From NCBI RefSeq assembly GCF_053078305.1, contig NZ_CP166879.1: DNA of 64,000 nucleotides; one strand, given 5' to 3'. The stretch's first letter is position 1; each line of letters begins with the position of its first letter. Shown here one piece after another: positions 20,251 to 30,636 of the stretch. The position numbers and the translations under genes are program-made. The notes under the pieces were generated by a model, which was not told the DNA's origin, made no database searches, and saw only the letters and a program-made list of their open reading frames with translations.

Positions 20251-20343
20251 GGTGAGGTGGCCGAGAGGCTGAAGGCGCTCCCCTGCTAAGGGAGTATGCG
20301 GTCAAAAGCTGCATCCGGGGTTCGAATCCCCGCCTCACCGCCA
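20251..20343 (+). tRNA. serV: tRNA-Ser (anticodon GCU), long variable arm
   Basis: ggtgaggtggccgagaggctgaagg..ccgcctcaccgcca; anticodon loop cuGCUaa; about 93 nt with encoded CCA. Confidence 0.9.
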
Positions 20344-20346
20344 TTT

Positions 20347-20423
20347 GCATCCGTAGCTCAGCTGGATAGAGTACTCGGCTACGAACCGAGCGGTCGGAGG
20401 TTCGAATCCTCCCGGATGCACCA
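20347..20423 (+). tRNA. tRNA-Arg (anticodon ACG), copy 1
   Basis: gcatccgtagctcagctggatagagtactcggctACGaaccgagcggtcggaggttcgaatcctcccggatgcacca (77 nt). Confidence 0.92.
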
Positions 20424-20487
20424 TCTCTTACTTGATACGGCTTTAGTAGCGGTATCAAAAAATCTGCAGTAAAGTAAGTTTCCCGAT

Positions 20488-20564
20488 GCATCCGTAGCTC
20501 AGCTGGATAGAGTACTCGGCTACGAACCGAGCGGTCGGAGGTTCGAATCCTCCCGGATGCACCA
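20488..20564 (+). tRNA. tRNA-Arg (anticodon ACG), copy 2
   Basis: Identical 77-nt sequence to copy 1. Confidence 0.92.
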
Positions 20565-20626
20565 TCTCTTACTTGATATGGCTTTAGTAGCGGTATCAAT
20601 ATCAGCAGTAAAATAAATTTCCCGAT

Positions 20627-20703
20627 GCATCCGTAGCTCAGCTGGATAGAGTACTCGGCTACGAACCGAGCGGTCGGAGGTTCGAATCCTCCCGGATGCA
20701 CCA
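20627..20703 (+). tRNA. tRNA-Arg (anticodon ACG), copy 3
   Basis: Identical 77-nt sequence to copy 1. Confidence 0.92.
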
Positions 20704-20838
20704 TATTCTCCGAAATCTTCAGCAATGAAGATATCGAAGAGGTAGCGGAATTAACCGCAGGCACCAGGGAGGATAACGTTGCGCCAGCAACGGCCCGAAG
20801 GGCGAGCCGCAAGGCGAGTAATCCTCCCGGATGCACCA
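20704..20838 (+). repeat. About 135-bp spacer repeat ending in a tRNA-Arg 3' remnant (aatcctcccggatgcacca), unit 1
   Basis: Read from sequence: ttctccgaaatcttcagcaatgaagatatcgaagaggtagcggaattaaccgcaggcaccagg.. ends with the last 19 nt of tRNA-Arg. Confidence 0.7.
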
Positions 20839-20901
20839 TCTCTTACTTGATATGGCTTTAGTAGCGATATCAATATCAGCAGTAAAATAAATTTTCCCGA
20901 T

Positions 20902-20978
20902 GCATCCGTAGCTCAGCTGGATAGAGTACTCGGCTACGAACCGAGCGGTCGGAGGTTCGAATCCTCCCGGATGCACCA
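20902..20978 (+). tRNA. tRNA-Arg (anticodon ACG), copy 4
   Basis: Identical 77-nt sequence to copy 1. Confidence 0.92.
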
Positions 20979-22295: not shown

Positions 22296-23879
<1,584 letters not shown>

Positions 23880-23887
23880 CAGAAAAG

Positions 23888-23960
23888 AAAAAGGCCACTC
23901 GTGAGTGGCCAAAATTTCATCTCTGAATTCAGGGATGATGATAACAAATGCGCGTCTTTC
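23888..23960 (-). ncRNA. micA: MicA (SraD) Hfq-dependent small RNA
   Basis: Minus-strand sequence gaaagacgcgcatttgttatcatcatccctgaattcagagatgaaattttggccactcacgagtggccttttt matches MicA including its terminator hairpin; lies between gshA and luxS. Confidence 0.9.
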
Positions 23961-24028
23961 ATATACTCAGACTCGCCTGGGAAGAAAGAGTTCAGAAAAT
24001 TTTTAAAAAAATTACCGGAGGTGGCTAA

Positions 24029-24544
24029 ATGCCGTTGTTAGATAGCTTCACAGTCGATCATACCCGGATGGAAGCGCCTGCAGTTCGGGTGGCGAAAACA
24101 ATGAACACCCCGCATGGCGACGCAATCACCGTGTTCGATCTGCGCTTCTGCGTGCCGAACAAAGAAGTGATGCCAGAAAGAGGGATCCATACCCTGGAGC
24201 ACCTGTTTGCTGGTTTTATGCGTAACCATCTTAACGGTAATGGTGTAGAGATTATCGATATCTCGCCAATGGGCTGCCGCACCGGTTTTTATATGAGTCT
24301 GATTGGTACGCCAGATGAGCAGCGTGTTGCTGATGCCTGGAAAGCGGCAATGGAAGACGTGCTGAAAGTGCAGGATCAGAATCAGATTCCGGAGCTGAAC
24401 GTCTACCAGTGTGGCACTTACCAGATGCACTCGTTGCAGGAAGCGCAGGATATTGCGCGTAGCATTCTGGAACGTGACGTGCGCATCAACAGCAACGAAG
24501 AACTGGCGCTGCCGAAAGAGAAGTTGCAGGAACTGCACATTTAG
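24029..24544 (+). CDS. luxS: S-ribosylhomocysteine lyase (autoinducer-2 synthase)
   Basis: 171-aa ORF; [23 protein letters not shown].. with HTLEH metal-binding motif. Confidence 0.97.
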
Positions 24545-24575
24545 TCAGTAAACTATCTTCACAATTAATTGAAAA

Positions 24576-24599
24576 AAGCCAGTTCAAATGAACTGGCTT
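24576..24599. terminator. Bidirectional rho-independent terminator between convergent luxS and emrB
   Basis: Hairpin aagccagttc-aaat-gaactggctt flanked by an A-run on the plus strand (T-run on the minus strand). Confidence 0.7.
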
Positions 24600-24607
24600 A
24601 GTTGTAC

Positions 24608-26146
24608 TTAGTGCGCACCGCCTCCGCCGCCACCTGCGCCAAAGGGCGGTTTAGCAAACCACACCAGCCCCAGCAGGACGAGGAATATCCCGGCTGACAT
24701 CCAGAAGATCTCATTGGCGGAAATAATCAGCCCCTGGTTAGTGATCTGCTGGGCAATCCAGCCGGAGGCCTGCTGTTGCGTCATCCCAAGCCCTTCCAGT
24801 TGACTGTACATCGCCTGGGCATTCGGGTTGAACGGGTTTACCGACTCGGTTAACTGCGCATGGTGCATCGACTCGCGGTTGGTCCACATGGTTGTGGTTA
24901 TCGACGTGCCGATAGACCCCGCCAGCGTACGCGTAAAGTTGGAGAGACTCGATGCCGCCGCCAGTCGTTCCGGTGGCAAACCAGACAGCGTAATGGTGGT
25001 CAGCGGCATAAAGAAGCAGGCCACAGCGAAGCCCTGGATAAACTGCGGCCAGGCCGACGCGCCAAAATCCATGCCCGGTTCAAAGGTATAGGCACGCCAG
25101 TAGAAGCAGACGGCATACATAATAAAGCTGAAGGTTACCAGTCGGCGCATATCCAGTTTATGCGCGAAGCGGCCGATAATCGGCGAAAGGATCACCGGAA
25201 TAATTCCTACCGGCGCAGAGGCCAGACCTGCCCACGTTGCCGTGTAACCGTAGACCTCCTGCAACAACTGCGGCAGCAGAACAATCGCGCCGAAGTAGAG
25301 CATATACGCGAGGCTGATACACAAACAGCCGATGGTGAAGTTGCGCGACTTAAACAACGACAGATCGACTATCGGGTTATCGTCGGTCAGCTCCCAGACA
25401 ATCAGGAAGCAGATAGCCACCACCGCCACCACGGTAAGGATGATAATTTCCTGTGATGAAAACCAGTCCAGCTCTTTACCGCGGTCGAGCATAATCTGCA
25501 GGCTGCCGATACCAATAACCAGCAGTGCCAGCCCCACGGCATCAATCCGCCGCCGTTCGGTGCGGGTTTCGCGTCCGCGCAGCGTCTGCAATGTCATCAA
25601 CACCACCGCCACGCCAATCGGCACGTTGATGAAGAATATCCAGCCCCAGTGATAATTATCACTGATATAGCCGCCGAGGATCGGGCCGCAAATTGGCGCG
25701 ACAATCACCGTCATCGACCACAACGCCAGCGCGATTGAGCGTTTGGCTGGCGGGTAGTTATTCAGCAATAGACTTTGCGAAAGCGGGATCAACGGCCCGG
25801 CGACAATCCCCTGAATCACGCGGAAGAAGATCAGCATATTTAGGCTGCTGGAGACACCACACGCCCACGACGCAATAGCAAAGGCGATGGTGGACCAGAG
25901 GAACAGTTTCACTTCCCCGACGCGCTTTGCCAGCCAGCCGGTAAGCGGGATCGAGATGGCATTCGCCACCCCGAAAGAAGTGATTACCCACGTTCCCTGG
26001 CTGAGCGATGAGCCCAGATTCCCGGCGATAGTGGGGATCGCCACGTTAGCAATGGTGGAGTCCAGCACCTGCATGAATGTCGCCAGTGACAGCGCAATCG
26101 TCATAATGACCAGTTGCGCGCCTTCCAGCGGTTTTTGCTGTTGCAT
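24608..26146 (-). CDS. emrB: Multidrug efflux MFS permease EmrB
   Basis: ORF 24608..26155; from MQQQKPLEGAQLVIMTIALSLATFMQ.. a 14-TMS-type MFS protein; start placed at the second Met. Confidence 0.93.
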   Translation of the reverse strand: MQQQKPLEGAQLVIMTIALSLATFMQVLDSTIANVAIPTIAGNLGSSLSQGTWVITSFGVANAISIPLTGWLAKRVGEVKLFLWSTIAFAIASWACGVSSSLNMLIFFRVIQGIVAGPLIPLSQSLLLNNYPPAKRSIALALWSMTVIVAPICGPILGGYISDNYHWGWIFFINVPIGVAVVLMTLQTLRGRETRTERRRIDAVGLALLVIGIGSLQIMLDRGKELDWFSSQEIIILTVVAVVAICFLIVWELTDDNPIVDLSLFKSRNFTIGCLCISLAYMLYFGAIVLLPQLLQEVYGYTATWAGLASAPVGIIPVILSPIIGRFAHKLDMRRLVTFSFIMYAVCFYWRAYTFEPGMDFGASAWPQFIQGFAVACFFMPLTTITLSGLPPERLAAASSLSNFTRTLAGSIGTSITTTMWTNRESMHHAQLTESVNPFNPNAQAMYSQLEGLGMTQQQASGWIAQQITNQGLIISANEIFWMSAGIFLVLLGLVWFAKPPFGAGGGGGGAH

Positions 26147-26162
26147 CACACGCACCTCTGGA

Positions 26163-30554: not shown

Positions 30555-30636
<82 letters not shown>

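Follow-up and report, generated by a model that had tools for sequence, protein, structure and literature searches.

The question raised by this locus is whether the 149-bp spacer between gshA and luxS carries an RNA gene on the strand opposite to both neighbours. The original prediction had placed the full MicA sequence there, on the minus strand of the window (the whole stretch of 64,000 nucleotides that was analysed), and had named an Rfam search as the check. When the complete 64-kb window was scanned with Rfam cmscan, RF00078 (MicA) matched at 23889-23960(-) with an E value of 1.4e-11 and 83.9 bits, which is twice the gathering score of 41; the match covered model positions 1-75 of 75 and was not truncated. 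A permissive scan of 23300-24700 called MicA again and showed no second family at E<=1. The minus-strand sequence of 23888-23960 is GAAAGACGCGCATTTGTTATCATCATCCCTGAATTCAGAGATGAAATTTTGGCCACTCACGAGTGGCCTTTTT; it starts with the +1 at 23960 and ends within the U-tail at 23888. Compared to the curated K-12 gene (b4442, a 73-nt ncRNA at 2814802-2814874 of NC_000913.3, 8 nt from gshA), 73 of 73 nucleotides were identical and the extent was exactly equal. Since there is a single copy of the 27-nt 5' end in the window, and none in 100 shuffles even when 3 mismatches were allowed, the match is not due to chance. Strand, position and identity were thus as predicted, and it is practically certain that 23888-23960(-) is micA of a non-K-12 E. 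coli strain, encoding the sigma-E-driven, 73-nt, ompA-pairing sRNA MicA (SraD).

The gene is oriented against both of its neighbours, as had been proposed. The 518-codon ORF of gshA (glutamate-cysteine ligase, 22323-23879(+)) is convergent with micA, with 8 nt between its stop codon and the micA 3' end, and the 171-codon ORF of luxS (S-ribosylhomocysteine lyase, 24029-24544(+)) is divergent, with 68 nt between the micA +1 and the luxS ATG; both appear in the ORF list and in the RefSeq annotations. The next gene after luxS is emrB at 24608-26155(-). The prediction had also described the sRNA as invisible to ORF-based annotation, which agrees with the three records compared. Only the curated NC_000913.3 annotates a feature in the spacer, whereas the PGAP RefSeq records of the K-12 derivative NZ_CP032667 and of PS10-3 list none and contain just gshA and luxS at the locus. 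Although MicA is a textbook example of an envelope-stress regulator, both PGAP E. coli records inspected have an empty spacer, and an ORF-only pipeline would overlook a functional gene at this position. The value of the finding is limited to annotation quality. It is correct and already known, as the prediction had itself remarked (MicA is covered by PMC1851643, PMC2956633 and PMC4618604), and concerns a canonical gene with nothing unusual; no new biology results from it.

Compared to K-12 MicA (SraD, b4442, RF00078), this strain shows the same 73 nt, promoter, terminator, spacer, neighbours and orientation, and the gene itself comprises no difference. The spacer is identical to K-12 at 149 of 149 bp, while the flanking genes account for 62 substitutions over 3.5 kb of the window. 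The divergence amounts to 2.1% for gshA, where 32 of the 33 substitutions fall on third codon positions, to 1.0% for luxS and to 3.5% for emrB. The perfect conservation of the spacer, while its neighbours drift, can be explained by the presence of micA in it. The same comparison bears on whether the gene could have decayed or fallen silent in this strain, with its expression lost. No specific point speaks for such a loss, and disruption as such does seem possible, with at least one E. coli genome (R13) matching only over the 3' half of the gene, but promoter, transcript and terminator correspond base for base to the functional K-12 gene amid neighbours with 1-3.5% substitutions. We therefore regard a decayed copy as extremely unlikely, and transcription of micA in this strain would be expected from its sequence identity to K-12.

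Overall, the micA locus was found in 5,423 of 5,426 complete E. coli genomes. In R13 (NZ_CP107151.1, 3677243-3677331), only bases 83-171 (52%) of the 171-nt query comprising micA and its promoter matched, corresponding to the 3' half of micA and the end of gshA, which suggests that disruption or rearrangement has affected the micA promoter and 5' seed of R13. As a separate observation, the substitutions relative to K-12 were unevenly distributed across 22323-25262. The changes in gshA cluster at 22484-23039, and yqaA as well as all three intergenic spacers showed none. This uneven spread may represent a mosaic or recombination pattern.

Upstream of the +1, a sigma-E-type promoter was identified on the minus strand at 23967-23993, consisting of the -35 box GAACTC (23988-23993, -33 to -28), a 16-nt spacer and the -10 element TCTGA (23967-23971, -11 to -7). 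The motif GAACT-N17-TCTGA showed a single match on both strands of the 64 kb, located at the micA promoter, compared to an expected number of 0.05. The -35 box is preceded by an A/T-rich, UP-element-like tract at 23996-24014(-), corresponding to -54 to -36, as read from the sequence. The A/T-rich tract at this position was remarked on in the legend of Fig. 3 of PMC1851643, and the upstream tract is also A/T-rich in the homologues among the matches listed. For the same K-12 sequence, Udekwu and Wagner described a promoter bearing the sigma-E consensus signature, and in K-12 the expression of an RNA of about 70 nt was reported to be induced by envelope stress or in stationary phase, to be undetectable in a ΔrpoE mutant and to be induced by sigma-E overexpression (PMC1851643). 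The promoter motif was established here directly, and sigma-E dependence would be transferred to this strain from the work on the identical K-12 sequence. No sigma-70 promoter was detected on the micA strand by the promoter scan, which is the expected outcome for a sigma-E gene.

The transcript folds into two hairpins comprising nt 24-43 and nt 51-68, with a free energy of -21.2 kcal/mol and a z of -3.05 compared to shuffles. Stem-loop 1 (nt 24-43, 23918-23937(-)), as given by both the Rfam structure line and the MFE fold, consists of a 4-bp and a 3-bp helix around a conserved 1x1 C/A internal loop, and its pairs were retained in 96-100% of the 83 distinct homologues among the matches listed. 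The additional pair U23-A44 of the MFE fold was present in only 33 of the 83 homologues and was dropped from the model. The two hairpins are connected by the A/U-rich linker AAAUUUU (nt 44-50, 23911-23917(-)), for which a mean unpaired probability of 0.98 was determined at nt 45-50. In the K-12 RNA this linker is the published Hfq-binding site (PMC4618604), and on this basis a putative Hfq site is assigned to the linker of this strain's MicA.

The terminator that had been predicted to complete the gene was detected by the terminator scan at 23883-23910(-). It is an intrinsic terminator in which the 7-bp G+C-rich hairpin GGCCACTCACGAGTGGCC (nt 51-68, 23893-23910) is followed by TTTTTCTTTT. The T-run is present on the minus strand only, the other side of the hairpin carrying AAAATTTCATC, a poor U-tract, in the plus-strand direction. 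From this polarity we infer that the hairpin would terminate micA efficiently and gshA poorly, which agrees with the published read-through into luxS.

The asymmetry of the terminator also helps to decide whether the spacer might act on the plus strand only, as a gshA terminator and/or a structured 5' leader of luxS, with no RNA gene on the minus strand at all. The hairpin does lie 14 nt beyond the gshA stop codon, where a gshA terminator could be placed, but the T-run follows it on the minus strand alone. A weak sigma-70-like site (ATGATA-18-TATACT, 9/12) was found at 23938-23967(+), on the luxS strand inside micA, but with one plus-strand site found compared to 0.9 expected it lies at chance level, while the sigma-E motif, which has no second match in the 64 kb, is directed along the minus strand and correctly spaced from the +1. 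Moreover, the Rfam model is strand-specific and scored the minus strand only. The published luxS transcript starting at -332 (G at 23697) crosses the region, but this leader, although real, exists in addition to micA rather than instead of it. Altogether, an exclusive function on the plus strand is very improbable, and the minus-strand sRNA gene is retained as the explanation of the spacer.

The conservation of the gene was determined by a homologue search with one genome per species, using the seed GAAAGACGCGCATTTRTTATCATCATC. The exact 27-nt seed was found in at least 120 species genomes of the Enterobacterales, and these loci (at least 120) include the genera Escherichia, Citrobacter, Enterobacter, Klebsiella, Yersinia, Serratia, Pantoea and Erwinia, as well as Dickeya, Pectobacterium, Hafnia, Rahnella, Tatumella, Rosenbergiella and others. 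Among the matches listed, 113 of the 114 homologues with enough flank showed a -10 element of the form TCTGA, TCTTA or TCTCA (87, 18 and 8 loci, respectively), and a -35 box of the GAACT/GAAAC type was observed for these 114 loci. The arrangement of the genes was likewise conserved. All 110 listed loci with enough flank (110/110) have luxS divergent upstream and gshA convergent downstream, the sequence ending early on one side in the remaining 10. At these 110 listed loci, the distance from the luxS ATG to the micA +1 has a median of 72 nt and a range of 67-179, and the distance from the micA 3' end to the gshA stop codon a median of 9 nt. Orthologues from Salmonella, Citrobacter, Klebsiella, Yersinia, Serratia, Pantoea, Dickeya and others thus share the seed, the sigma-E-type promoter, the two hairpins and the orientation towards luxS and gshA, whereas both the sequence and the length of the stem-loop 1 loop, the linker and the terminator loop differ among the matches listed, the RNAs being 71-81 nt long.

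For the alignment, 84 sequences (83 distinct) were chosen for an exact match to nt 1-27, and since they were selected on the exact seed the set is biased towards conserved copies. Within nt 1-27 of the 84 aligned sequences, nt 16, which is an R in the search pattern, is the sole variable position. Among the 83 distinct homologues listed, 94.9% of the structure cells were paired, compared to 30-52% when the 3' partners were slid by 1-3 columns. Of the 15 hairpin pairs, 10 never vary and two show compensatory changes, both of them closing a loop. The loop-closing pair of stem-loop 1 changes from G-C to A-U in 4 sequences. In the terminator, six pairs are invariant in the 83 homologues listed and the top, loop-closing pair covaries, changing from A-U to U-A or G-C in 6 sequences; it is U-A in the window and in the other Escherichia and Citrobacter copies and A-U in most genera among the matches listed. 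The covariation support for the MicA hairpins is therefore real but thin, and the structure is kept mostly by invariance.

The same alignment allows an assessment of a 48-aa ORF at 23816-23962(-), present in the ORF list, whose ATG overlaps the start of micA and which could be taken for a small protein gene. Its first 9 codons fall within the invariant seed, but the 84 listed homologues show 80 different translations past residue 9, an in-frame stop within the sRNA in 38 of 84, and lengths in all three classes modulo 3 (33/31/20). In addition, the ATG lies at -2, ahead of the mapped transcription start, without a Shine-Dalgarno sequence before it, and the terminator would cut the message after 24 codons. 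Based on the frame and indel evidence the small-ORF reading was rejected, and a coding function of this ORF is of negligible probability compared to the sRNA.

The pairing of MicA was calculated with the K-12 leader of ompA, since the ompA gene of this strain lies outside the window. The target-pairing seed comprises nt 7-24 (23937-23954(-)) within the 5' region of nt 1-23 that precedes stem-loop 1, and for nt 1-24 a mean unpaired probability of 0.62 was determined. Nucleotides 7-24 pair with positions -22 to -5 of ompA (GGAUGAUAACGAGGCGCA), including the Shine-Dalgarno sequence, at -21.7 kcal/mol with a z of -2.96. As 15 of 2000 shuffles of the seed pair equally well with ompA, the pairing energy alone is not decisive. 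The complementarity agrees with the published antisense mechanism, in which ompA translation is blocked and the mRNA decays, and which is Hfq-dependent and was confirmed by compensatory mutations (PMC4618604). Further direct targets include ompX, lamB and phoPQ (PMC4618604). A calculation with full-length MicA and the ompA leader (RNAduplex, -44.5 kcal/mol) was discarded and replaced by the test with the 5' 24-nt seed. In the full-length case 38 of 1000 shuffles were as good, and the structure was unrealistic, with large interior loops and both hairpins forced open.

With Hfq dependence and the target list transferred from published work on K-12, whose sequence is identical, the gene would operate as follows. 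Under envelope stress, RNA polymerase carrying sigma-E would start at 23960(-) and stop at the hairpin and U-tail near 23888, yielding the 73-nt RNA. With the help of Hfq, which would bind the A/U linker and the U-tail, the 5' seed would pair with the ribosome-binding region of ompA mRNA, the other published targets being phoP, lamB and ompX. The pairing would block translation and promote mRNA decay, and the load of outer-membrane proteins would become smaller. RybB, the other classical sigma-E-dependent, Hfq-binding sRNA, follows the same logic of sigma-E promoter, 5' seed, Hfq and repression of omp mRNAs, according to PMC1804206 and PMC4618604. It is not related to MicA in sequence, is encoded at another locus and has other principal targets, and RybB was not detected by Rfam within the 64-kb window.

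A second layer of regulation could arise from the luxS transcript on the opposite strand. According to Udekwu 2010, luxS is transcribed from a sigma-S-type promoter, P1, whose mapped start is a G at -332 relative to the AUG, and long luxS transcripts undergo MicA- and RNase III-dependent processing (PMC2956633). The base at 23697 (24029-332) of the window is a G with CTATGAT ahead of it, in agreement with the -13 C and the -10 box described in PMC2956633. The long luxS leader of the P1 transcript would accordingly comprise 23697-24028(+) and probably run antisense across the whole of micA in this strain too. Since the leader is transcribed across micA on the opposite strand, MicA would be fully complementary to it, and RNase III would cleave the resulting duplex, as in the published work; for this strain the processing of luxS is carried over from the K-12 literature. 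The sigma-70-like site at 23938-23967(+) lies close to the TAP-enhanced 5' end that Udekwu 2010 assigns to the short luxS transcript R3 (PMC2956633).

The constant order of luxS, micA and gshA in all listed loci with enough flank could mean that the arrangement itself is under selection, with MicA and the overlapping luxS leader regulating each other in cis, either via RNase III cleavage or via transcriptional interference. We regard this as conceivable but on balance doubtful. If true, envelope stress would be coupled to AI-2 and activated-methyl-cycle output across the order and beyond E. coli. A cis-antisense relation of MicA and luxS has reportedly been raised for Salmonella by Kint et al. 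(2010). For E. coli, the idea was raised by Udekwu 2010 (PMC2956633). In such a cis-antisense reading, the order-wide conservation alone would be new.

Besides micA, the window contains several other RNA features. The ssrA gene (tmRNA) was found at 62793-63155(-) with an Rfam score of 295.8 bits and the tag ANDENYALAA according to ARAGORN. A further difference to K-12 concerns this position: the 22-kb cryptic prophage CP4-57, located beside ssrA in K-12 (2755941-2777971), is absent from 54895-63155 of the window, and the distance from ileY to ssrA is 7.8 kb in the window compared to 29.8 kb in K-12. In the best-matching genomes ypjA lies near ssrA, and a 'recombinase family protein' is also annotated under the match. 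ileY itself is located at 54895-54969(+). It was called tRNA-Met (CAT) by ARAGORN, while its position corresponds to K-12 ileY, which is annotated as tRNA-Ile(CAU); calling a lysidine-modified isoleucine tRNA as tRNA-Met is a standard miscall. At 20251-20978(+), a tandem tRNA cluster begins with tRNA-Ser(GCU) and continues with four copies of tRNA-Arg(ACG), which all have the same Rfam score, and is of the serV-argVYZQ type. A match to naRNA4 / CssrE (RF02564) at 30558-30635(-), with 76.4 bits compared to a gathering score of 59.5, comprises two adjacent imperfect hairpins and is presumably a REP/BIME-type repeat.
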